From Mycobacteriales bacterium (GTDB taxonomy: Bacteria; Actinomycetota; Actinomycetes; Mycobacteriales; QHCE01), in the NCBI GenBank assembly GCA_038260095.1, contig JBBSOC010000003.1:3518-67517 (forward strand): a DNA stretch of 64,000 nt, given 5' to 3'. Every line of letters begins with the position of its first letter. Position 1 is the first letter of the stretch. The position numbers and the translations under genes were made by a program. The notes beneath the pieces were generated by a model that worked only from the letters and a program-made list of their open reading frames with translations, was not told the DNA's origin and searched no databases. This document shows, one piece after another, positions 8,697 to 41,332 of the stretch.

Positions 8697-9107
8697 TTAT
8701 CTTTCCTCGAATTCAAGGACAGCTTGCTCTCGCGTGGCACTCAGTGCCGAAACTGCACCTGCTAATTCCTGGACGAGGTCGTCGTCATCAATGGCGTGCC
8801 GAGTGGCCAATTCGATGAGCATGTCCTCGCCTTGTGGATACACAACGCGCACTGATGACTCGATAGTCCATTCATCCTCGTCTAAAATGAGGTTCATCCC
8901 GAAACTCAAAGCAGCGCCAGATTCATGTTCAGCATCTGCGTACCATTCGATCCGGAGGCCACTACCTCTCCCCGTCTCGTATGAGTACTCATCTCGCCGT
9001 TGCTGCCTCGACATCCAACAGGGTTGGGACACGTCACTGAAACCCGGCGTATTCCTCAACCAACTCGCCAAACTGGAAAAGGCCTCACTGACCCTGACGA
9101 GAGGCAC
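8697..9107 (-). CDS. Hypothetical acidic protein
   Basis: 136-aa ORF with no motif I recognise. The likely start is the internal MSRQQRRDEY at 9014. It lies downstream of the HEPN-MNT pair on the same strand. Confidence 0.4.
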   Translation of the reverse strand: MPLVRVSEAFSSLASWLRNTPGFSDVSQPCWMSRQQRRDEYSYETGRGSGLRIEWYADAEHESGAALSFGMNLILDEDEWTIESSVRVVYPQGEDMLIELATRHAIDDDDLVQELAGAVSALSATREQAVLEFEER

Positions 9108-30267: not shown

Positions 30268-32247
30268 TTACTGCGCGGACACTACGCTGTCGGTCTTAGC
30301 CAGCTGCAGCACCCATTCAGTGATGGTGCGAGCAACCTGCTGAGGGGTGAGGCCAAGCTCGGTGAGGATCTGCGCACGGCTTCCGTGTGGCACAAAGCGA
30401 GTAGGTACACCTAGACACCGCACGGGCGTGGTGACCTGCGCATCGGCCAGCTGCTGGGCGATCGCTGTACCCACCCCGCCGCAACGTAAGCCATCTTCGG
30501 CAGTCACTACCACTCGATACTGCCGTGCCAGCTCAATCAGCTCGGTTGGCGGTGGGATTACCCAGCACGGATCAACCACGGTGACGCCGATGCCTTGCTC
30601 GCCAGCGCGCTGTGCTGCCTGCACTCCAAGCTCTCCGAATGCACCCACCGCCACGAACAGCACATCGGGCTGTCGATCACGGTGCAGCACGTCGAGCTGT
30701 CCAATTCGATCGACCGCAGGCAACTCCAGCGGAGTGCTCCCCGTGGGAAACCGCAGCATCGTGGGCCCGTCGGTGACCGCGACCGCCTCGGCTAGCTGTT
30801 CGCGCAGTCGCACGGCATCGCGTGGTGCGGCGATCCGCAACCCCGGTACGGTCGAGCCGATCGCCAGATCCCAGATCCCGTAATGGCTAGGCCCATCTGG
30901 ACCGGTGATCCCCGCGCGATCCAAAACAAAGGTAACCGGGAGCCGATGCAGCCCAACATCAAGCAGTAGTTGATCGTAAGCGCGATTCAGGAACGTGGCG
31001 TACACCGCTACCACTGGATGCATGCCGCCCATAGCCAAACCGGCCGCCGACGTTACAGCGTGCTGCTCGGCGATACCAACGTCGAATGCGCGCTCAGGAT
31101 AGGCACGCATCAACTGCTCGATGCCGGTGGGTCCCGCCATCGCGGCGGTGATGCCGACCAAGCTCTCCCGCTTACTCGCGAGGTTGACTAGCTCCTTAGC
31201 AAATACCGATGTCCAGCTCACACCCAAACTGCCGTTGGAAATGGCCTTGCCAGTCTCGGGATCAAACGCCGAGGAGCTGTGCAGGCAATCTGCCTCATCA
31301 TATTCGGCGGGCTGATAGCCGTAGCCCTTGCGCGTAATGGCATGCACGATCACCGGATGGCCGTACCCAGCTGCTAGCCGAAGCGCGGTCTCCATGGCCA
31401 CTACATCGTGCCCATTGACCGGGCCGACGTATTTTAGACCAAGGTCTTCAAACATCGCTGGGCCAAGTAGGGCATCTTTGAGTCCTCGCCGAATACCGCG
31501 GAGCACATCGCGCACGCTATGTCCGACCAGCGGGGTCCGCAGCAGCGCGCGGTGGATCGCGCTCAATGCCCGCTCGTAGTTAGGGCTGAGCCGCAACGAG
31601 GCTAAATGATCAGCCAAACCACCGATGGTTGGAGAGTAGGAGCGGCCGTTGTCATTCACCACGATGATCACCGGACGGTCAGGACCCGCGGCGATGTTAT
31701 TCAGCGCTTCCCAGCACATTCCCCCGGTAAGCGCGCCGTCACCGACAATCGCAACGACCGCACGGTCGCGCTCCCCCCGCAGCGCATACGCTTTGGCAAG
31801 CCCATCGGCATAGGACAGCGCGGTGGAGGCGTGCGAGTTCTCCACAAGGTCATGGCAAGACTCGGCTCGGCTCGGGTAGCCCGAGAGCCCGCCGCGGCGG
31901 CGCAGTTCCTCGAAGCCGGCTTGGCGCCCCGTAAGCATTTTATGCACGTACGTCTGATGCCCTGTGTCAAAAATGAGTCGATCCTTGGGTGAGGCGAAGA
32001 CTCGGTGTAGGGCAAGCGTCAGCTCAACCACGCCCAGATTGGGGCCCAGGTGACCGCCAGTACGGGACAGCTTCTCAATCAAGAAGTCTCGAATCTGAGC
32101 AGCAAGGTTTCCCAGCTGCTGTGCGGGTAGCAGCTTAAGTCGCTCCGGGGTATCCACCTCTGTCAGCAACGGCCAGCTCTGCCGTTCCGCCGCCGATTCG
32201 GAAACTAACGGCTCAGAGGCTAAAGGAGTTGGGAGCTCAGAATGCAT
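30268..32247 (-). CDS. dxs: 1-deoxy-D-xylulose-5-phosphate synthase
   Basis: 659 aa with [14 protein letters not shown], the GDGALTGGM ThDP motif and AEQHAVT. Confidence 0.95.
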
Positions 32248-32271
32248 AACGGTCAGGTTACTACCGAACTC

Positions 32272-34329
32272 CTACGAGCGTAGGTCAGTCGGCTCCCGCA
32301 AACCCCGTCGAACGTCACCAGGGCGCGATCTGCGTTCCTTATTGTCCACCCGATCGGCAAGCTGCGCAGAAGAGCTCAGCTGATAGGGCACGCTCGTCAC
32401 CATAACGCCGGGCTCGAACCGGAGCCGACTTTTAAGCCGAAGGGCGCTCTGGTTATGCAGCAGATTTTCCCACCAGTGACCGACCACGTACTCGGGCACG
32501 AAAACTGTGACCACATCTCGGGGACTTTCACGACGGATATCCTTGACGTAAGAAACCACGGGGTGAGTAATTTCACGGTACGGCGAGTCGATCACTGTGA
32601 GCGGTATCGGGATCTCACGCTGCGCCCATTCACGCTGCAGTCGCACGGTAGCGGCTTCGTCGACGCTCACCGTGACTGCGCTGAGAGTGTCGGGCCGAGT
32701 CGCACGGGCATAAGCGAGCGCGCGTAACGCTGGCTTATGCAGGGTGGAGACGAGCACGATGGTGTGGTTGCGCGACGGCAGCAAACCACGCTGCTCTGGC
32801 GGAATCAGCTCCGCGGAAACTCGATCATAGTGACGACGGATTCCCAACATGACCAGATAAACCATCGCCATCAGTACCAAGGCGATCCAGGCGCCTTGGG
32901 TGAACTTAGTAATTAGCACCACAACCAGTACGGAACCGGTCATGCTCAGGCCGACCGCGTTGATCGCCTGGCGGCGACGCATGCTGCGGCGTAGTACCTG
33001 ATCCCGCTCCATAAACAACAGACGCTGCCAGTGCCGAACCATGCCGAGCTGACTGAGGGTAAAGGAGGTGAAGACACCCACAATGTAGAGGTGAATCAGG
33101 GCGCTGGGGCTGGCGTCGAACACCACTAGCAGAACCCCGGCTGATACCGCCAGAAACAAAATGCCGTTGGAGAAAGCCAGTCGGTCCCCGCGGGTATGCA
33201 GCTGCCGAGGCAGGTATCGGTCCTGCGCGAGAATGGACCCCAGCACCGGAAAGCCGTTGAACGCGGTGTTGGCGGCCAGCACCAGGATCAGCGCAGTCGT
33301 AATAACCACAAGGTAGTAGGCCAGCGGAAAACCGGAGAACACTGCTTCAGCGAGCTGCGCCATCACGGTCTTCTGCTGATAACCTTCGCCGGCGCCAACG
33401 AGCTGTCTCGTGGGATCCTCCACGTACCGCAGCCCAGTCTTGCTGGCCAGTAGCAGTATCCCCCCCATCATCGTGCTGGCGACTACCCCCAGCAGCAGCA
33501 GCGTGGTTGCGGCGTTGCGGCCCTTAGGTTTACGGAAGGCGGGCACACCGTTACTAATCGCTTCGACGCCGGTAAGCGCCGCAGAGCCCGCAGAGAACGC
33601 TCGCAACAGCAAAAACACCAGCGCAACGCCGGTGAAGGAGCCTTCGGCGGCGAGCTTGAAGCTGGCACTTTCGGTGCGCACTTGATCGCCTAGCAGGAAA
33701 ATGCGCACCAGTCCGTACCCGATCATCCCCAGCACCGCGATCATGAAGCCATAGGTTGGGATAGCGAATGCGATACCGGATTCTCGCACCCCACGTAGGT
33801 TCATCGCGGCCAGTAGCACTACCACTGCTACCGCTATTACAGCTGGCCGTTCGGCAAGCCAGGGCATCAACGAGCCAAGGTTCTCCACGCCAGCAGCCAC
33901 AGAGACGGCTACCGTGAGCACGTAGTCCACAAGCAGCGAACTGGCGACGACCAAGCCGTAGCGCTGCCCCAGATTGGTGGTGACAACTTCATAGTTGCCG
34001 CCACCTGATGGGTATGCCTGCACATTCTGTCGGTAAGACGTAACCACGGTGAGCAGCACCACCACGACTGCCGCGCCCACCCATGGCGAGAGGTGGTAGA
34101 TGGCCAGACCGGCCACGCTCACAGTCGCCAGGATCTCCGCTGGCGCATAGGCGACGGAGGAGAGCGCGTCGGAGGCGAAGATTGGCAGCGCGAGGCGTTT
34201 GGACAGCAGGGTTTCCCGAAGTCGCTCGGTGCGAAAGGGGCGTCCTAAGAGCAGCCGCTTTATCAGCGTTGCAGATGATGGCACGTCTGACACCGTACTG
34301 GTGAAGTATCCGGCGGCGGCTGGCGACAC
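32272..34329 (-). CDS. APC-superfamily permease with large cytoplasmic C-terminal domain
   Basis: 685 aa with about 12 TM segments and a soluble tail. Its position next to the trkA pair matches M. tuberculosis Rv2690c-ceoB-ceoC as I recall it. Confidence 0.8.
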   Translation of the reverse strand: MSPAAAGYFTSTVSDVPSSATLIKRLLLGRPFRTERLRETLLSKRLALPIFASDALSSVAYAPAEILATVSVAGLAIYHLSPWVGAAVVVVLLTVVTSYRQNVQAYPSGGGNYEVVTTNLGQRYGLVVASSLLVDYVLTVAVSVAAGVENLGSLMPWLAERPAVIAVAVVVLLAAMNLRGVRESGIAFAIPTYGFMIAVLGMIGYGLVRIFLLGDQVRTESASFKLAAEGSFTGVALVFLLLRAFSAGSAALTGVEAISNGVPAFRKPKGRNAATTLLLLGVVASTMMGGILLLASKTGLRYVEDPTRQLVGAGEGYQQKTVMAQLAEAVFSGFPLAYYLVVITTALILVLAANTAFNGFPVLGSILAQDRYLPRQLHTRGDRLAFSNGILFLAVSAGVLLVVFDASPSALIHLYIVGVFTSFTLSQLGMVRHWQRLLFMERDQVLRRSMRRRQAINAVGLSMTGSVLVVVLITKFTQGAWIALVLMAMVYLVMLGIRRHYDRVSAELIPPEQRGLLPSRNHTIVLVSTLHKPALRALAYARATRPDTLSAVTVSVDEAATVRLQREWAQREIPIPLTVIDSPYREITHPVVSYVKDIRRESPRDVVTVFVPEYVVGHWWENLLHNQSALRLKSRLRFEPGVMVTSVPYQLSSSAQLADRVDNKERRSRPGDVRRGLREPTDLRS

Positions 34330-34393
34330 TCAGTCCCGCGTCCAATATGGGTAGTTCGCGCCACAGGTACATAGAGCCGTGTAGCCTGCGCAC

Positions 34394-35074
34394 GTGCATG
34401 TGGTGATTCTGGGATGCGGGCGCACTGGCGCCACGCTCGCGTACGACCTACTGCAGCGAAGTCATACCGTGGCGATAATTGACCGCGATATCGCTGCGTT
34501 TCGGCGGCTGGGCAACGGATTCGAAGGTCGGGTTGTAACTGGCAATGGCTTCGATAAAGGTGTGCTGCTGCAGGCCGGGATCGAGCAAGCTGAGGCGTTT
34601 GCCGCGGTGGCACACGGTGACAATTCCAATATTATCGCCGCCCGAGTAGCTCGGGAAACGTTCGGTGTGTCGCGCGTAATTGCCCGGATATACGACGCGC
34701 GCCGCGCGGAAGTATACGAGCGGCTGGGTATCCCGACGATCGCCACGGTGCGCTGGGCGACGCATCGGATGCTACGCGCGCTCTGCCCCAGCGAGGACCC
34801 GGAGATCTGGCGCGATCCGACCAGCACGGTGGGGCTAATCACCCCGACACTGCATCCAGATTGGGTAGGCCGTCGGCTCGCCGAATGGGAAATCCAGACC
34901 GGGGCACGAGTCGCCTACGTCACCCGGTTCGGTATCGCCACCTTGCCCACCCCATCGATGGTACTGGGTGATGGCGACCAGCTCGCAGCGCTGGTTACTG
35001 ATGACATCGCGGACCGAGTCGTTTCCCTCGCGAACAGCTCACCAGTCGAATCCAGCATTTCAAGAGCTCAGTGA
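34394..35074 (+). CDS. trkA: TrkA-family potassium uptake protein (RCK domains)
   Basis: VVILGCGRTGATLA Rossmann motif. 226 aa. Confidence 0.85.
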   Translation: MHVVILGCGRTGATLAYDLLQRSHTVAIIDRDIAAFRRLGNGFEGRVVTGNGFDKGVLLQAGIEQAEAFAAVAHGDNSNIIAARVARETFGVSRVIARIYDARRAEVYERLGIPTIATVRWATHRMLRALCPSEDPEIWRDPTSTVGLITPTLHPDWVGRRLAEWEIQTGARVAYVTRFGIATLPTPSMVLGDGDQLAALVTDDIADRVVSLANSSPVESSISRAQ

Positions 35075-35727
35075 TGCGCATAGCTATCGCCGGAGCCGGC
35101 AACGTAGGACGTTCCATTGCCGGGGAGCTGCTCGACCACGGCCACGAGGTAATGATTCTAGAGCAGAACCTGGCACAGATGCGGGCGCAGCTGGTACCAG
35201 GCGCGCGCTGGGTGCTGGCCGATGCGTGCGAAATGGCCGCGCTAGAGGATGCGCAGCTGGAAACTTACGATGTGATGGTCACCGCCACCGGGGACGATAA
35301 AGCAAATCTCGTGGCGGCGTTTCTGGCCAAGACCGAGTTCGCAATTACCCGGGTGGTCGCCCGAGTAAACCGCGCCGAGAACGAGTGGTTATTCACACCA
35401 GCCTGGGGCGTTGACGTTGCGGTAAGCAAACCGCGGCTACTGGCGGCGCTGGTGGAAGAGGCGGTTAGCGTTGGTGATGTGGTGCGGCTGATGACACTAC
35501 GCCGCGGCCAGGCCAACTTGGTGGAGATCACGCTGCGGCCAGATACCAGCTACGCCGGAACCGCGGTACGCGATGTGACGTTGCCTCGTGACACCACGTT
35601 GGTAGCCATTGTGCGGGGTCCGCGCGTGATCACACCGAGCCCAGATGAGCCCTTGGAGCCAAGCGATGAGCTGATGTTCCTGTGCGCACCAGAGTTCGAG
35701 GACGCACTACACGAAGCACTGTCATGA
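35071..35727 (+). CDS. trkA: TrkA-family potassium uptake protein (second paralog)
   Basis: IAIAGAGNVGRSIA Rossmann motif. 218 aa. Overlaps the upstream gene by 4 nt. Confidence 0.85.
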   Translation: MMRIAIAGAGNVGRSIAGELLDHGHEVMILEQNLAQMRAQLVPGARWVLADACEMAALEDAQLETYDVMVTATGDDKANLVAAFLAKTEFAITRVVARVNRAENEWLFTPAWGVDVAVSKPRLLAALVEEAVSVGDVVRLMTLRRGQANLVEITLRPDTSYAGTAVRDVTLPRDTTLVAIVRGPRVITPSPDEPLEPSDELMFLCAPEFEDALHEALS

Positions 35728-35765
35728 GGACGGTTTCAGGGAAAATGTCCTCAATCCTGCATGAA

Positions 35766-37205
35766 TCACGACGCTTTCGGGGAAAATTCTGCAAGTAGGG
35801 TTTGCAGTTGGTGGTGGAAATCATGCAGCTGAGAGGTGTTCTTCGCCGCTGGATGCGCGGCAAGCTCGGTATCAAGTATGCGTAGTTGCGCGACTGAGCG
35901 CGGAGAGCGCACTGCGGATGGGGCAAGAGCGGGCAGCGCAGTGTGTAGTGCTGTGTCGATGTCGCCCAGCCACATGTGGCTGCGAGCCAGCCACACCCGG
36001 TTGTACAGCGCCTCGCGGGGAAAGTGCACATCATCAAGGGCGCAGCTCGGGGCGAGCAGCCGGGCTGCCTCGACAAGCCGATGTTGCTGTGGCGCCTTAG
36101 TCGCCCTCGCCAACGTCAATAACCCGTGCCCCCGACGAACCTTGCTCTGCGTGGGTCCAAACCAATACATCCAGCTAGGCTGGCCCTCTACCGCACCCGG
36201 CTCCTCTATCAGATCCTGCGCGGTTGCCATATTGGTTTCAAAACCGTAGGCGTTGCCCTCCAGCGCTTCGGTGTGTGCAACCAAGCCACCCACCAGTGAC
36301 CGTAGTGCTGGCGGACCGCCCTTGGCCGCCCGTACTGTGGCATCAGCTAGCGCACGAGCTTCCCGGACCTTTCTACAATAGATTGCCTGGTGAGTCAGCC
36401 TCGCAAGTAGGTAAGCACCGTAAGTGCGGTCCCTAATACTATGTGCAGCGCGCAGCCCAGAGTAGAAATACCGTTGCGCCAGGCCGTGTTCCTCAGCGTC
36501 ATAGGCCATCCAGCCCGCGACCTGACACAAAGACATCCACACCCGAAATAGCTTCCCCAACACAGTGCTATCCACAGCGTCACCGGATCGAATCTGCTCA
36601 CCAATGCTAAGGAAGTACTGATGCACGAAACGCAGGTTCTCCAGACTGCCGCCTTCAGTGTCATCAAGCCGACGCATCCGCTCCACCACCACCGAAGCGA
36701 TGCTGGTCATAGAGGCAGTGATCATGCGCCCATCACGGGCCCAGTTGCGGTACCGGACCAACTGCAGCGGAGTAGCCGGATGCTCTAGATAGGATAAGGC
36801 TGGCCCGACCAAAGCCTCGCCCCACACCGGAAAGAATGTACGGTGGCTGAAATCAAGCACCGTTTCCCCATGCTCCTGCCAGCATTCCAGCGCCCCCACA
36901 GTACCCGAATGACACCATGGGCCAGCCATGCCATCAAGCGCCGAAAGCCACAGCTGCGACCGTTTCGCCCGGCCTTTCCACAACTCATCCAGTGTGACGG
37001 TGCGCCCTAGCTCCTCCGAAAGCACATGTGCGACCACCGTAGGCACCGGATCACGCGGAACACGCTCCTGATTCACCCATTCAGCCACCGTCGAACGGGA
37101 TACGTATCCAGCACCAAGTACCTCGTTGAGGCGACGTGCCAGCCGCGACTGTGACCAGCCCAGCTCCTGTAATAACTCAAGCAACACCAGGTTTTTGTTG
37201 ACCAC
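35766..37205 (-). CDS. XRE-type HTH regulator with long TPR-like helical-repeat C-terminal domain (paralog 1)
   Basis: N-terminus LLQELGWSQSRLARRLNEVLGAGYVSRSTVAEWVNQERVP, followed by about 400 aa of helical repeats (GWMAYDAEEHGLAQRYFYSGLRAAH...). I place the start at the GTG at 37205, 5 nt after GGAGG. The track start at 37337 is the TTG of a TTGACA box. Confidence 0.7.
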   Translation of the reverse strand: MVNKNLVLLELLQELGWSQSRLARRLNEVLGAGYVSRSTVAEWVNQERVPRDPVPTVVAHVLSEELGRTVTLDELWKGRAKRSQLWLSALDGMAGPWCHSGTVGALECWQEHGETVLDFSHRTFFPVWGEALVGPALSYLEHPATPLQLVRYRNWARDGRMITASMTSIASVVVERMRRLDDTEGGSLENLRFVHQYFLSIGEQIRSGDAVDSTVLGKLFRVWMSLCQVAGWMAYDAEEHGLAQRYFYSGLRAAHSIRDRTYGAYLLARLTHQAIYCRKVREARALADATVRAAKGGPPALRSLVGGLVAHTEALEGNAYGFETNMATAQDLIEEPGAVEGQPSWMYWFGPTQSKVRRGHGLLTLARATKAPQQHRLVEAARLLAPSCALDDVHFPREALYNRVWLARSHMWLGDIDTALHTALPALAPSAVRSPRSVAQLRILDTELAAHPAAKNTSQLHDFHHQLQTLLAEFSPKAS

Positions 37206-37391
37206 CAAAACCTCCAACACAGTGCTCTTGCGGTCAGCGCAAAGGCTCAATCGAAAAAATGCACGCAGCCCCAAAGGCACATGACAGTCGTCATCTATCA
37301 GTCTGACAACCCATACGTTACCGCCACAGGCTGTCAACCGCCGACTCCGGCTCTAAAAATCCACAAGTCGGCGATTAGGGGATTGTGGCCA

Positions 37392-37421
37392 CTGAATTCA
37401 GGCTATGCTGGCTGAATTCAG
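37392..37421. promoter_or_regulatory. Two copies of the 10-bp palindrome CTGAATTCAG, 20 bp centre to centre
   Basis: Copies at 37392-37401 and 37412-37421. They lie between the stop of paralog 2 (37441) and the TTGACA box (37337-37332) upstream of paralog 1. Confidence 0.4.
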
Positions 37422-37440
37422 TCAGTGCTGAGGCGATTCG

Positions 37441-38889
37441 TCAGGCAGCAAGCGCCGGCCGCAGCTGCTTACGCAGCTCGCGGACCTCGGGCAGATTTCG
37501 ATCGCTCCGCAGATTCGCTAAATCCTTATCCAGATCGAACAAAACCTGCCGAGATCTCGGGGATGCCACAGCGGGGACACGGTCGATAGCAGCTTGAGCA
37601 AGGTTCAAGCCTTGATGTAAGTCGCCACGCCTGACATGCACCCGTGCCAGCCATGCGCCAAAAAACACCGCATCCCGAGGGCGGTCGGGCCCTTGTTGAT
37701 GCACTTCAGAAGCAAGTAGGCGCTCAGCTTCAGCGAGCCGTGCTTTAGCTTGCTGCGGTCGCGCCAGCGTCATCAGCAACATGCTGTGACCCTGGTAGGT
37801 ATCAGCCGCGGTTGGATCAAGCCAGTACAGGTACTCCGGACCTCCCCCCGCGCGTTGAGCCTGCTCGAATAACCGGCGCACCTGGGCTGAGGCCGTCTGA
37901 AAACCGTATAAGTCGCCTACTGCCGCATGTGCGTGTGCCACCCGAGTCATCGCAACGGTCTGCACCAGCGGATGCGCCTTAGCGGCGGCGCGAACCGAGG
38001 CATCAGCGAGGTCTCGGGCCTCGGTGAGTTGCTGTCGGTGAGTCGCTTGGTAGGACATAAAGGATAAAATATGCGCGCCCAAACCATGATCACCAACATT
38101 ATGTGCTGCTTGTAATCCAGTTCGAAAATAGAGTTGTGCAAGTCCGTGACGCTCTGCATCAAAAGCCATCCAGCCCGCGATTTGCGATAGCTTCGCCAGC
38201 ACTTCCAGTAGAGTCCGAGCGATTCCAGGATCAGTAAAAGAACCCGCATCGAGGTACTGCATGACCGTCTCTATCGCACCGCCAATCTGGCGAAGGTTCT
38301 CCGCACTGCCACCTGCGATGTCGTCCATGCGACGGAACGCGCCAATTAAAGAGTGAAAATACTCCAATGACGCCGAAGATACCTTGGGTGAAGAGAAATC
38401 CGATGCTCCCAACACCTGCTCGAACATCCCCCTAGCAGGCACGTCTTTTACGTGATTTACGTACTGCCACGCCGGCGCGGTTAACGCCACACCCGATAAC
38501 GCCATAAAACTGCGGCGATCTCCCTCGAACACCGTGCCTCCACTTGGCAGCCAACTATTGATCAGTGCTTTCGTGCCCTGTAGATCCCATGACACTTGGG
38601 TGCCGGCATCAGCAGGCAACCAGTCAGAAGAACTCGCAGCCCTAGGCCACAACTGCTTTACCGCTACAACCCGGCCAGCCGCCTGAGACAACACGTAGGC
38701 AATCACTGTGGGTAGTGGCGGACGCGGCACTCGCGACATATTCACCCACTCCGACGCAGTCGTCCGAGACACATACCCCGCACCCACTTCGCGATTCACC
38801 TCATGAGCAAGACGTGAAATAGACCACCCAACTTGGTCCAACAGCCCGGAGAGCTCATCATGATGTCCACCACGACAACCAACCATCAC
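37441..38889 (-). CDS. XRE-type HTH regulator with TPR-like C-terminal domain (paralog 2)
   Basis: 482 aa. It has the same architecture as paralog 1 and is roughly 35-40% identical to it by eye (LLDQVGWSISRLAHEVNREVGAGYVSRTTASEWVNMSRVP; GWMAFDAERHGLAQLYFRTGLQAAH). Confidence 0.75.
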   Translation of the reverse strand: MMVGCRGGHHDELSGLLDQVGWSISRLAHEVNREVGAGYVSRTTASEWVNMSRVPRPPLPTVIAYVLSQAAGRVVAVKQLWPRAASSSDWLPADAGTQVSWDLQGTKALINSWLPSGGTVFEGDRRSFMALSGVALTAPAWQYVNHVKDVPARGMFEQVLGASDFSSPKVSSASLEYFHSLIGAFRRMDDIAGGSAENLRQIGGAIETVMQYLDAGSFTDPGIARTLLEVLAKLSQIAGWMAFDAERHGLAQLYFRTGLQAAHNVGDHGLGAHILSFMSYQATHRQQLTEARDLADASVRAAAKAHPLVQTVAMTRVAHAHAAVGDLYGFQTASAQVRRLFEQAQRAGGGPEYLYWLDPTAADTYQGHSMLLMTLARPQQAKARLAEAERLLASEVHQQGPDRPRDAVFFGAWLARVHVRRGDLHQGLNLAQAAIDRVPAVASPRSRQVLFDLDKDLANLRSDRNLPEVRELRKQLRPALAA

Positions 38890-39060
38890 ACCACCACCTA
38901 GGCATCACCGGACTACACGGTGATACTAGCCCGCCACTAGATCCGCACATAGGAAATGCCACAAAATTGTATATACACAAGCAATTTTGGCATGCTTTCA
39001 CCCGAAACGGCATACGCGGCGCTATCGGCTCAAGCTCACGAACTCACAGCAACGTTGTGC

Positions 39061-39804
39061 TTACTGGTGTGGAGACGACTCAGAAAGCCGATCGCTGCCC
39101 TGGTCAATGATCGGCCCTGCTTCATTGAGCTGCTCGCGTGCTACCACTTTGCCGCCATAATAGACTGTGAACGCGAACGCGGCTGCATATGGCGCCACGC
39201 CCAAAATCCGGGCGATGCCCAATCCTACGGTCAACCCCGACAGGTAGAGCCATAGCTGCACACCTCCGCGGAGAAAGAACACTCCGCACCACAGCACCGA
39301 TAACCAGCTAAACGCCTTCAGCAAAGCTGGCCGGGATTGCCAATCAGCGAAACTGCCGGTCAATACTGACCAGGCATAGCCGATCAGCGGGCGCCTCACC
39401 CCGACCGACACTGCAAACGCCGCCCCATACACAAAATTCGTGATGATGCCCGGCAGAAAGAAATCTTGTGCGCGGCCCGTCTTGGCCGCGATCAGCGCGG
39501 CAAGTCCTACGCCCAACAGCCCAGTGAGCGCATGGCGAGGTGAATCCCGCTGTAGTAGCCGGTAGGCAGCAATAAGTACTGCGGCGATAACTGCGGCCCA
39601 GATGGAGAACTTCAGCGACGTGAACACATAAGCCCCGACAAATACCACTACCGGAAGGCTGCTCTCGACCGTGCCTCGCACCCCACCAATCTGATCAGTG
39701 ACAGCTTCTCGGAGCGAAGGCAGCGAAGGCTCGGTCACACTGGAAGGTTTCTCATCGAGTGGTCGCTGCGGTGCGGGATGGGATGGTTGCACAGAGTTGG
39801 TCAC
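39061..39804 (-). CDS. DUF3159-type membrane protein (Rv2693c-like)
   Basis: 247 aa polytopic protein. The call rests on position and composition, and the family assignment is from memory. Confidence 0.7.
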   Translation of the reverse strand: MTNSVQPSHPAPQRPLDEKPSSVTEPSLPSLREAVTDQIGGVRGTVESSLPVVVFVGAYVFTSLKFSIWAAVIAAVLIAAYRLLQRDSPRHALTGLLGVGLAALIAAKTGRAQDFFLPGIITNFVYGAAFAVSVGVRRPLIGYAWSVLTGSFADWQSRPALLKAFSWLSVLWCGVFFLRGGVQLWLYLSGLTVGLGIARILGVAPYAAAFAFTVYYGGKVVAREQLNEAGPIIDQGSDRLSESSPHQ

Positions 39805-40364
39805 GATCCGCTGGCCTCCAGCGCGTAGTTCGGGTTGTACATCACTCTACGACCTTCCCGCATCGCGATACGGCCGCGCACCCGCAGTTGCCTACCCGCC
39901 ATGATTCCGAGGATCACCGCTCGCCCCAACCACACCAGCGTGACGCTGCCGCTGCCGTCAAACAGCTCAGCCTCCACAGTGGGGCTGCTCAGCAAGCCCC
40001 AACCCGGTATGTGCTGCACCGAACGGAGTCGGCCGTAAAGTTCAATCAGCTGGCCACGCAGACAACTATCTACCCGGGTGGCACCCGACTCTGCGGCTGC
40101 CCGGCACAATTGCGCCGCTTCCAACTCATCATCGGAGGTCGTAATGCGGCGTAGTAGACTCAGAGGTCGCGCGGATTGGTGCTGTTCCACTGCGGTGTCC
40201 CCTGGCACATGCGTCTCGGCTGCAGCCGAGGATATTGTCGTCGTCGCCCATGCATCCAGCATGAACTCCTCCTCCGCCTTGCCATACTCGACCAGGCACC
40301 ACCTCGCAACGAACGACCAACCCGCGCGACCTCTATCCTCAATGGCAGAGGGCTGTTTAGTCAT
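39801..40364 (-). CDS. OB-fold nucleic-acid-binding domain protein (Rv2694c-like)
   Basis: C-terminal VTLVWLGRAVILGIMAGRQLRVRGRIAMREGRRVMYNPNY. The start is uncertain (alternative ATG at 40262). Confidence 0.65.
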   Translation of the reverse strand: MTKQPSAIEDRGRAGWSFVARWCLVEYGKAEEEFMLDAWATTTISSAAAETHVPGDTAVEQHQSARPLSLLRRITTSDDELEAAQLCRAAAESGATRVDSCLRGQLIELYGRLRSVQHIPGWGLLSSPTVEAELFDGSGSVTLVWLGRAVILGIMAGRQLRVRGRIAMREGRRVMYNPNYALEASGS

Positions 40365-40399
40365 GGCTCCCAGCCTTAAACTGTCAGTACGCTCTTACT

Positions 40400-41332
40400 C
40401 TAATGGGTTAGGGCGAGCTCATCCTCATTGAGGAAAGGTAAGCCACGGATCTCGATGGTCTCGTCGGCCACTGGGCCATATCGCTCACGATACGTGGCAT
40501 CAGCGAGATACGACGAGCGTGCTGGAATTCGCTCGCGCGGCGGCCTAGATTCGCCAGCTAACCTCGTCTCGCGAGCTACCTGCGAGGCAACTCGCGCGAT
40601 GGGCTGCTCGGGCGCCACCGGTTTGGTAGTGGCCGGCTCCGGCATGCGCATGGGTAGCGGGTCGCGTACTGGGCGTGGCTCGATACCTCGTACCACAATA
40701 GTGTTACGCAGCACGTCGAGAAGAATTTTACTCGCTGCTGGATCGCTGGCTGCCGCTCCGGTAAACATCGCACGAATAAACCAACGCGGCCCATCTATTC
40801 CGAGGAAGCGCACAAGTTGGCGACCATTTTGAGTCGGCAGGTTCGCTAGCAGCTCCAGGTCAAACTCCCCCTCGCATTCGCGTGGCGCGTAGTTTTCAGC
40901 TTCCAGCTTGATTCGTAAATCATGTCGGATGTCATCCCATGCCCCATCCTCGCGGGGTGCGGCGAACGGTATGACCTGCAGCGCACTGTTGCCCTGCACT
41001 AAAACGATTGCGCTGATGTGGTCATCTTCCACCTGCGGGTGGATATTTACACCGGGCAGTACTGGGACCCGAAGTGCGCCAAGGTCGACGCGGGTCAGGT
41101 TATCTATGGGGAGCGCGCCTGAGTCGAATGGACCGCTGGTCGAAACAGAAAGAGGCGCCAACTCATCATCTGAGATCAAGCTCCGCGACGCGGAGGCTGA
41201 TGTCACATCATCTCTAGCAGGTGCATTGTTTGCTTCCAGGTAGTTTCCGGTGGGGTCATCAAGGCCATCAAAGCCGCGATCAGCTCGCTCGGCCTCAATA
41301 CGGGCATGTCTACCCCCTCCTCGACGAAACAT
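40400..41332 (-). CDS. DUF3710 protein (Rv2696c-like)
   Basis: 310 aa with GPFDSGALPIDNLTRVDLGALRVPVLPG. Lies next to dut, as in mycobacteria. Confidence 0.7.
   Translation of the reverse strand: MFRRGGGRHARIEAERADRGFDGLDDPTGNYLEANNAPARDDVTSASASRSLISDDELAPLSVSTSGPFDSGALPIDNLTRVDLGALRVPVLPGVNIHPQVEDDHISAIVLVQGNSALQVIPFAAPREDGAWDDIRHDLRIKLEAENYAPRECEGEFDLELLANLPTQNGRQLVRFLGIDGPRWFIRAMFTGAAASDPAASKILLDVLRNTIVVRGIEPRPVRDPLPMRMPEPATTKPVAPEQPIARVASQVARETRLAGESRPPRERIPARSSYLADATYRERYGPVADETIEIRGLPFLNEDELALTH

Follow-up and report, generated by a model that had tools for sequence, protein, structure and literature searches.

A tandem pair of predicted NsdA-family regulators at the DUF3159-trkA junction of an uncultured Mycobacteriales bacterium

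The tandem genes and their family

The window analysed in this study is a stretch of 64,000 nucleotides of contig JBBSOC010000003.1 (assembly GCA_038260095.1) from a Mycobacteriales bacterium, and it harbors two adjacent minus-strand genes, here called geneB (upstream) and geneA (downstream), which encode predicted regulators of the NsdA family and are inserted between a trkA gene and a DUF3159 gene. The initial annotation of this stretch had described them as a tandem pair of old paralogs of about 480 aa and 35-40% identity, each joining an XRE-type helix-turn-helix (HTH) to tetratricopeptide repeat (TPR)-like repeats, and had proposed that they form a new, RNPP/AimR-like signalling module of actinobacteria. 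Its description of the genes agrees with our results: open reading frames (ORFs) of 479 and 482 aa lie side by side at this place (Table 1), and the two proteins share 39% identity across 469 residues (E = 9e-101).

Both proteins match the NCBIfam model NF053720 ("NsdA family TPR-like regulatory protein") well above its cut-off of 75 bits (Table 1), and phrog_10886 ("transcriptional regulator") matches them from end to end (E = 1e-53 and 1e-57); the Pfam annotation precomputed in the database for these proteins is PF27520. Pfam alone leaves both proteins unassigned, and it is NCBIfam and PHROGs that supply their identity. On the strength of these profile matches, we are highly confident that both are members of the NsdA family.

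The founding members of this family, NsdA (SCO5582) and NsdB (SCO7252) of Streptomyces coelicolor, have been studied since 2006-2007. Orthology of geneA and geneB to either of them was considered and rejected, as the scores amount to 109-122 bits against the cut-off of 830 of the NsdA equivalog model NF050130, and to 81-88 bits against the cut-off of 700 of the NsdB equivalog model NF050135; the names of these NCBIfam models describe NsdA as a transcriptional repressor and NsdB as a DNA-binding protein. The family as a whole is large, with 2,565 clusters at 50% identity in an exhaustive HMMER scan (E <= 1e-3), or 836 at E <= 1e-10, and it extends to mobile elements. Homologs are present on 143 actinobacterial plasmids and in the temperate Streptomyces phages SV1 and Raleigh, where they lie between the lysis genes and the integrase/repressor region. 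In these phages, the NsdA-family gene stands on the strand opposite to the structural genes, with the lysis cassette on one side and the integrase, repressor and cro genes on the other. The two contigs that carry the family member P0018 (L012 and L013) hold an element resembling an actinomycete integrative and conjugative element (AICE), with a replication-relaxation (Replic_Relax) family protein and a TraD-like coupling protein. This element contains two NsdA-family genes, namely, that of P0018 and one of 442 aa, whose match of 244 bits is confined to the TPR-like part (residues 114-411) and which is followed by a NUDIX hydrolase gene.

Differentiation and antibiotic synthesis are under the pleiotropic negative control of nsdA in several Streptomyces species (PMC12243394, PMC5567329, PMC7105598), and both NsdA and NsdB are TPR-domain proteins (PMC7160387). 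For NsdA of S. rimosus, promoter binding was demonstrated by chromatin immunoprecipitation sequencing and electrophoretic mobility shift assay, and the protein represses its targets (PMC12243394), while NsdA-like XRE regulators have been noted in AICEs of Frankia (PMC3218068). Since the family is already catalogued and has a literature on NsdA and NsdB, an actinobacterial HTH-TPR regulator is not new, and the novelty claimed for the module has to be given up: its proteins are clear members of NF053720, a family studied in Streptomyces and noted in Frankia.

Table 1. Location of the tandem genes, their predicted domains, neighbouring features and homologs (positions in the window unless a contig is named)
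Feature	Location	Strand	Remarks
geneB, upstream NsdA-family regulator	37441..38889	-	482 aa; NF053720 240.9 bits, residues 12-474
geneA, downstream NsdA-family regulator	35766..37205	-	479 aa from GTG at 37205; NF053720 225.2 bits, residues 8-461
geneB-geneA intergenic region	37206..37440	-	235 bp; putative geneA promoter and leader, 20-bp tandem duplication
geneB predicted XRE-type HTH	38650..38862	-	residues ~10-80; model of residues 1-95
geneA predicted XRE-type HTH	36981..37193	-	residues ~5-75; HTH_3 sub-threshold, phrog_8, phrog_3
geneB predicted TPR-like superhelical domain	37447..38376	-	residues 172-481, 14 helices
geneA predicted TPR-like domain	35769..36713	-	residues ~165-479; full-length alignment to the geneB domain of the model
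Diverged geneB segment	37617..38416	-	nucleotide identity to L003 53-63%
AT-rich inverted repeat upstream of geneB	38962..38989	-	CAAAATTG-C-TTGTGTATATACAA-TTTTG; overlaps the only sigma-70-like promoter match
trkA/ceoC-like gene, one insertion edge	35071..35727	+	Pfam TrkA_N, TrkA_C
DUF3159 gene, other insertion edge	39061..39804	-	Pfam DUF3159, E = 2e-53
Raleigh gp25	L020 4989-6341		407 bits on NF053720
SV1 gp24	L021 4611-5960		NsdA-family regulator
HTH-less NsdA-family paralogs	L017 9502-10614; L018 10391-11494		356-370 aa, TPR-like only
HTH-less NsdA-family paralogs, further	L019 497-1567 and 3102-4190; L024 7485-8564		356-370 aa, TPR-like only

The extent of the two genes could be refined by comparison with related contigs, in particular L003 (QHCE01000080, from an Antarctic metagenome-assembled genome, MAG), L016 and the more distant L004. 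The database copy of the geneB product, P0001, starts one codon later, at an ATG at 38886, and is 481 aa long; the identical protein is found on two Logan contigs, flanked there by the same genes. The longest ORF of geneA (35766-37337, 523 aa) begins with a TTG at 37337. The true start, as judged from the sequence, is almost certainly the GTG at 37205, because (i) this codon is preceded by GGAGG within GTGTTGGAGG, which is kept in the window, L003, L016 and L004, (ii) the geneA ortholog of L004 begins at the equivalent position, directly past an in-frame stop, and (iii) the changes between the window and L003 in the upstream "extension" are mostly non-synonymous. The stretch from the TTG to the GTG is probably a 5' leader and not coding. 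No terminator was predicted between geneB and geneA, and the defence models of PADLOC gave no match.

Predicted fold, the question of peptide sensing and candidate DNA elements

At the N-terminus, the sequence signal is thin. Pfam HTH_3 reaches 20.2 bits on geneA (E = 6e-4), under its cut-off of 23, and Pfam gives no match of any kind on geneB, HTH_3 included; phrog_8 and phrog_3 weakly match the HTH stretch of geneA, which is 51% identical to that of geneB. In comparison with P0044 and P0045, which have a canonical HTH_3 or HTH_31 domain, the window proteins have 7 additional residues that separate helix 2 from the recognition helix. With the sequence evidence being thin, the question was settled by structure prediction. 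The AlphaFold2 model of geneB residues 1-95 (predicted local distance difference test score, pLDDT, 77) retrieves only XRE/Cro/CI-type domains from the PDB, the best of which is a lambda-repressor-like protein (TM-score 0.82, root-mean-square deviation 1.8 A), followed by CylR2, the CapH N-terminal domain, TP901-1 CI, C-proteins, SinR and ImmR. As modelled, the N-terminal domain is an XRE-type HTH, which is what the initial annotation had taken it to be.

The full-length AlphaFold2 model of geneB, calculated from a 40-sequence alignment, has a mean pLDDT of 90.2 and a predicted TM-score (pTM) of 0.91, and it consists of a five-helix bundle (residues 10-80), a structured linker with short strands (residues 81-170) and 14 helices (residues 172-481, pLDDT > 90) that form approximately seven TPR-like helical hairpins. 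Foldseek assigns the full-length model to TPR/SUPR solenoids with a probability of 1.00, the top matches being MalT domain III (1hz4, E = 1.6e-3), LGN/Pins, kinesin light-chain TPRs and the anti-sigma factor DdvA; every E-value exceeds 1e-3. Pfam TPR_MalT also matches weakly in 3 of the 40 family members scanned. The C-terminal repeats, which had been called TPR-like from their sequence pattern, are borne out by AlphaFold2 and Foldseek as a TPR-like superhelix.

This architecture raises the question of whether the genes encode a quorum-sensing pair of the RNPP/AimR type, in which the groove of the TPR domain would bind an imported oligopeptide, derived from a small secreted propeptide, and thereby switch the HTH. 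Several observations are consistent with such a role: RNPP proteins have the same HTH-plus-TPR architecture, and RapH is among the Foldseek matches of geneB; the sensor part of geneB occurs as deeply diverged alleles in close genomes, a pattern as at pherotype loci; and, like RRNPP systems (PMC10075063), the family has members on plasmids, conjugative elements and temperate phages, which carry them close to the integrase. RapH, however, takes only rank 37, behind generic TPR proteins, and PlcR, NprR, Rgg/ComR, PrgX and AimR are all missing from the Foldseek top 50. Against BFVD, the named Foldseek matches are generic TPR, Sel1 or SNAP repeat proteins, with no identifiable AimR among these viral proteins. 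Searches of PDB sequences, with the single sequence as well as with a profile, gave nothing meaningful, neither an RNPP protein nor a homolog of solved structure, and Pfam scans of the 40 family members returned only generic TPR and HTH families and not a single RNPP-specific one. The strongly conserved polar motifs of the family (RRxF, RRMDDxxGG, GWMAFDAxxHGLAQ and SPR) also speak against this reading, and so does the divergence of geneB, which is synonymous as well (dN/dS 0.11), hence there is no diversifying selection on a binding groove.

A propeptide gene was sought beside the genes with the same outcome. Among short ORFs of at least 10 aa adjoining the genes, none is conserved between the window and L004, L017, L018 and L019, where only noise-level matches were obtained; the nearest candidate, a 51-aa ORF overlapping the start of geneB, has its reading frame disrupted even in relatives as close as 88-95% identity, L003 and L016. 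These results concern the surroundings of the two genes, and a peptide encoded elsewhere in the genome would be compatible with them. The leader mini-ORFs proposed in the initial annotation are thus not sustained, and of its RNPP/AimR-like designation, the shared HTH-TPR architecture stands, while kinship at the level of Pfam and profiles and an adjacent propeptide gene do not, and the Foldseek ranking gives no clear sign of a preference for RNPP folds. We consider a peptide-sensing pair of this type very improbable indeed. A search of positions 34000-41000 against Rfam (E <= 1) found nothing.

The same annotation had assigned the module its own palindromic boxes. The palindrome CTGAATTCAG is indeed present twice, the only occurrences in the window being at 37392-37401 and 37412-37421, but both copies arise from a 20-bp tandem duplication at 37392-37431, with one palindrome per unit, and this is confined to the closest relatives: the unit is found once in L003 and twice in L016 (the second with one mismatch), and is absent from L004, L017 and L018. 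With one mismatch allowed, at least two matches occur in 44 of 100 shuffled sequences. Because perfect 10-bp palindromes are expected, by calculation, approximately once per kilobase, the CTGAATTCAG box alone carries little weight. The AT-rich inverted repeat upstream of geneB (Table 1) is a reasonable candidate, judged from its sequence and position, for an operator or promoter element. It is kept in L003 and L016 with small uncompensated changes and is not found in L004; no second intergenic copy exists within the window, where the one near-match of its AT-rich core falls inside a coding region.

Further repeats were noted in these upstream regions. The geneB-geneA spacer contains an imperfect inverted repeat at 37323-37389 (24-nt arms, 71% complementary), which holds a perfect 8-bp pair, CGCCGACT/AGTCGGCG, around a 19-nt loop and is not followed by a U-tract. 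Upstream of the geneB ortholog in L004 (approximately 8880-9010), two direct copies of a segment of about 40 bp, containing CTACTTTCGGGCTGACTTAGTAACGATCGGCTCAG and CTACTTTTCGATTGACCTAGTAACGATCGATTCAG, respectively, each include TTGAC-like and TAGTAA-like elements, and this arrangement looks like a duplicated promoter.

Insertion, allele divergence and pairing

The coordinates and the Pfam matches place the pair between the second trkA gene and the DUF3159 gene, as had been reported. The flank on the trkA side comprises dxs, an amino-acid permease gene and two trkA genes, and that on the DUF3159 side comprises DUF3159, a 187-aa gene without family match and DUF3710. The junction was surveyed by a DUF3159 protein search, with one genome per species, and the window proteins were mapped onto the loci. 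In five actinobacterial lineages (L006-L010, that is, Kineosporiaceae, Micrococcales, an unclassified Actinomycetota MAG and two Nanopelagicales MAGs), the convergent trkA pair and then the permease gene come straight after DUF3159, and the junction is empty. The pair occupies the junction in the window, in L003 (DUF3159 88% identical) and in L016. In L004 (DUF3159 75% identical), the pair comes after DUF3159 and is followed by thyX instead of trkA, and L005 (DUF3159 60% identical) lacks both the pair and trkA there. The direct adjacency of trkA and DUF3159, which the initial annotation had given for M. tuberculosis, is thus confirmed by the empty junction in L006-L010, and the same five lineages show that the two genes are not ubiquitous core genes of this position. 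The pair is a lineage-specific insertion into the DUF3159-trkA junction.

Such an insertion could also have been the cargo of a phage, AICE or plasmid, or be what is left of such a mobile element, in which case regulators of an immunity or lysogeny type landed in the junction and would now have little host function. The occurrence of family members between the lysis genes and integrase of SV1 and Raleigh, on the 143 plasmids and in the AICE-like context with Replic_Relax and TraD-like proteins is in keeping with this origin, as are the interruption of a conserved junction, the GC content at third codon positions of geneB (0.557, the lowest of the neighbourhood, against 0.63-0.70 for most neighbours) and the allele replacement described below. 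On the other hand, neither an integrase nor any other mobile-element gene, tRNA or att-like flanking repeat is present in the 3.3-kb insert, purifying selection acts on geneA and geneB alike, and the arrangement persists where DUF3159 is only 75% identical and recurs at a second chromosomal locus. We regard this origin as unlikely.

The edges of the insertion have some features of their own. A 23-nt direct repeat (35724-35746 and 35765-35787, 19 of 23 positions identical, 41 bp apart) straddles the convergent stops of trkA and geneA and could either mark where the insertion took place or be fortuitous. Beyond the other edge, the 5' part of the 187-aa ORF (ORF 39801-40364; the part at 40146-40345) falls to 53% identity to L003, with indels, and a tblastn search of this ORF against L003 aligns 129 of its 187 residues; by this comparison, the annotated start of this family-less gene probably lies too far upstream.

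While the window and L003 share approximately 90% nucleotide identity over most of the region, and 100% over the permease gene and dxs, geneB contains a strongly diverged segment (Table 1). Over residues 301-420, the geneB protein shares 47% identity with L003 but 73% with the more distant L004, the topology of the B clade conflicts with that of the A clade, and the geneB tree is discordant with those of the neighbouring genes. Compared with L016, dS is 0.06-0.09 for the flanking genes, 0.10 for geneA and 0.56 for geneB, and dN/dS of geneB is 0.11. Both genes are under purifying selection, with dN/dS ranging from 0.11 to 0.21. Positive selection was considered as the source of the geneB divergence and was rejected, as dS is raised as much as dN. 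Because a dS of 0.56 goes together with a dN/dS of 0.11, the excess divergence points to old variation that was either recombined in or kept as distinct alleles. With three or four genomes compared, this is a lead, as is the suggestion from these sequences that geneB is an allele-replacement hotspot.

Elsewhere in the window, positions 31000-34400 (dxs and the permease gene) are 99-100% identical to L003 at the nucleotide level, and identity falls to about 90% on the far side of trkA. This suggests either a very recent recombination or transfer between related populations or a chimeric MAG assembly.

The tandem arrangement is recurrent. An A-type gene lies directly downstream of another family member in 7 loci representing 3 genomic contexts. 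Behind a MoxR/DUF58/VWA operon, L017 and L018 carry a family member, an A-type gene and then an NsdA-family gene lacking the HTH (367-370 aa); L019 has four tandem family genes adjoining trkA, 2 of which are HTH-less; and in L024, a full-length gene overlaps an HTH-less gene by 4 bp. Lone B-type genes were found in L011 and L022. A neighbour-joining tree built on 337 shared columns places the A-type genes in a single clade (100/100 bootstraps), and their upstream partners are not monophyletic. Two elements are new here, although modest: an A-type gene always stands behind another family member, sometimes together with HTH-less paralogs, and geneB seems to be an allele much older than its flanks, under purifying selection.

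We suggest that the A and B genes belong to a locally expanding paralog family, for which hetero-oligomerisation is plausible, and the HTH-less paralogs may act as partner or decoy proteins. A refinement of our preferred explanation, given below, would be that the pair works as a heteromeric or hierarchical unit, in which A and B associate through their TPR-like domains or B controls A, with the HTH-less paralogs of the relatives serving as anti-regulators that titrate the DNA-binding forms. The invariable position of the A-type gene directly downstream of another member, the HTH-less genes of 356-370 aa beside full-length ones in L017, L018, L019 and L024 (with the 4-bp overlap in L024) and the common role of TPR-like domains in protein-protein contacts would all fit such a unit. 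The single-copy B-type genes of L011 and L022, by contrast, have no such partner, the window contains no HTH-less gene, and geneA and geneB have separate upstream regions, 235 bp apart; we hold this refinement as tentative and, on balance, doubtful.

Proposed role and comparison with known systems

In the explanation that we prefer, geneA and geneB would encode two paralogous transcription regulators of the NsdA family, composed of an XRE-type HTH predicted to bind DNA, a short structured linker and approximately seven TPR-like hairpins, which would most likely serve oligomerisation and the sensing of a partner or ligand. By analogy with NsdA, both proteins are most likely repressors. The two genes are probably driven by separate promoters and could plausibly be autoregulated. 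The pair entered the ancestral DUF3159-trkA junction in one lineage of uncultured Mycobacteriales-like Actinomycetota and has since been retained under purifying selection. Taken as a whole, we consider this explanation likely. The following points weigh against it: (i) since both proteins fail the NsdA and NsdB equivalog cut-offs, the targets and the phenotype of NsdA are not transferable to them; (ii) the HTH is atypical, with its 7-residue insertion and with Pfam HTH_3 being sub-threshold in geneA and absent in geneB; (iii) the candidate palindromes are confined to a single locus and are not conserved beyond the closest relatives; and (iv) the source organism is known only from metagenomes.

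The locus itself adds two divergent members of the NsdA family from an uncultured lineage, which in itself matters little. For the family, in which deletion of nsdA is widely used to raise antibiotic yields, it is useful in that (i) in a high-confidence model, a genuine XRE HTH is joined to a TPR-like solenoid of seven hairpins, (ii) persistent tandem arrays are found, including HTH-less paralogs, and (iii) one member appears to behave as an allele-replacement hotspot. A far-reaching conjecture would make the NsdA family the actinobacterial functional counterpart of RRNPP, that is, a set of ligand-gated HTH-TPR switches on chromosomes, phages, plasmids and conjugative elements, where the sensor allele classes of geneB-like genes would represent signal specificities, the HTH-less paralogs would be decoys and the tandem pair would act as a two-input decision module. 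We regard it as a long shot and quite improbable.

In comparison with known systems, the best structural match of the C-terminal domain is to MalT domain III and the SUPR sensors, a likeness that goes no further than a generic alpha-solenoid (TM-score 0.33-0.41); unlike MalT, the window proteins possess neither an NB-ARC/STAND ATPase nor a LuxR-type HTH. With the RNPP/RRNPP proteins (PlcR, NprR, Rap, PrgX and Rgg/ComR) and AimR, they share the order of an XRE-type HTH followed by a TPR-type superhelix and the occurrence on both chromosomes and mobile elements, and they differ in the absence of detectable sequence or profile kinship, of an adjacent propeptide gene and, apparently, of preferential structural similarity, in belonging to another phylum and in having some 90 residues of structured linker, which carry conserved motifs, between the HTH and the repeats. 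In contrast to the arbitrium system (AimR-AimP-AimX), the window genes lie on a chromosome, away from any phage genes, and even in SV1 and Raleigh, the annotated genes downstream of the homologs are on the opposite strand, unlike aimP, which lies directly downstream.

The NsdA-like regulators of mobile elements (those of Frankia AICEs, SV1 gp24, Raleigh gp25 and phrog_10886) are of the same family as the window proteins. The phage proteins, however, are only about 25% identical to these, and the window genes are located in a chromosomal housekeeping neighbourhood without mobile-element genes. NsdA is encoded by a single gene adjoining amtB-glnK-glnD (PMC9739823), whereas the window genes, from an uncultured Mycobacteriales-like lineage, persist as a tandem pair and are orthologous to neither NsdA nor NsdB, and a link to sporulation or antibiotic production cannot be assumed for their products. 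What they have in common with NsdA and NsdB of S. coelicolor is a length of about 480 aa, an XRE-like HTH, a TPR-like C-terminus, an end-to-end match to the family hidden Markov model and their place within the Actinomycetota.

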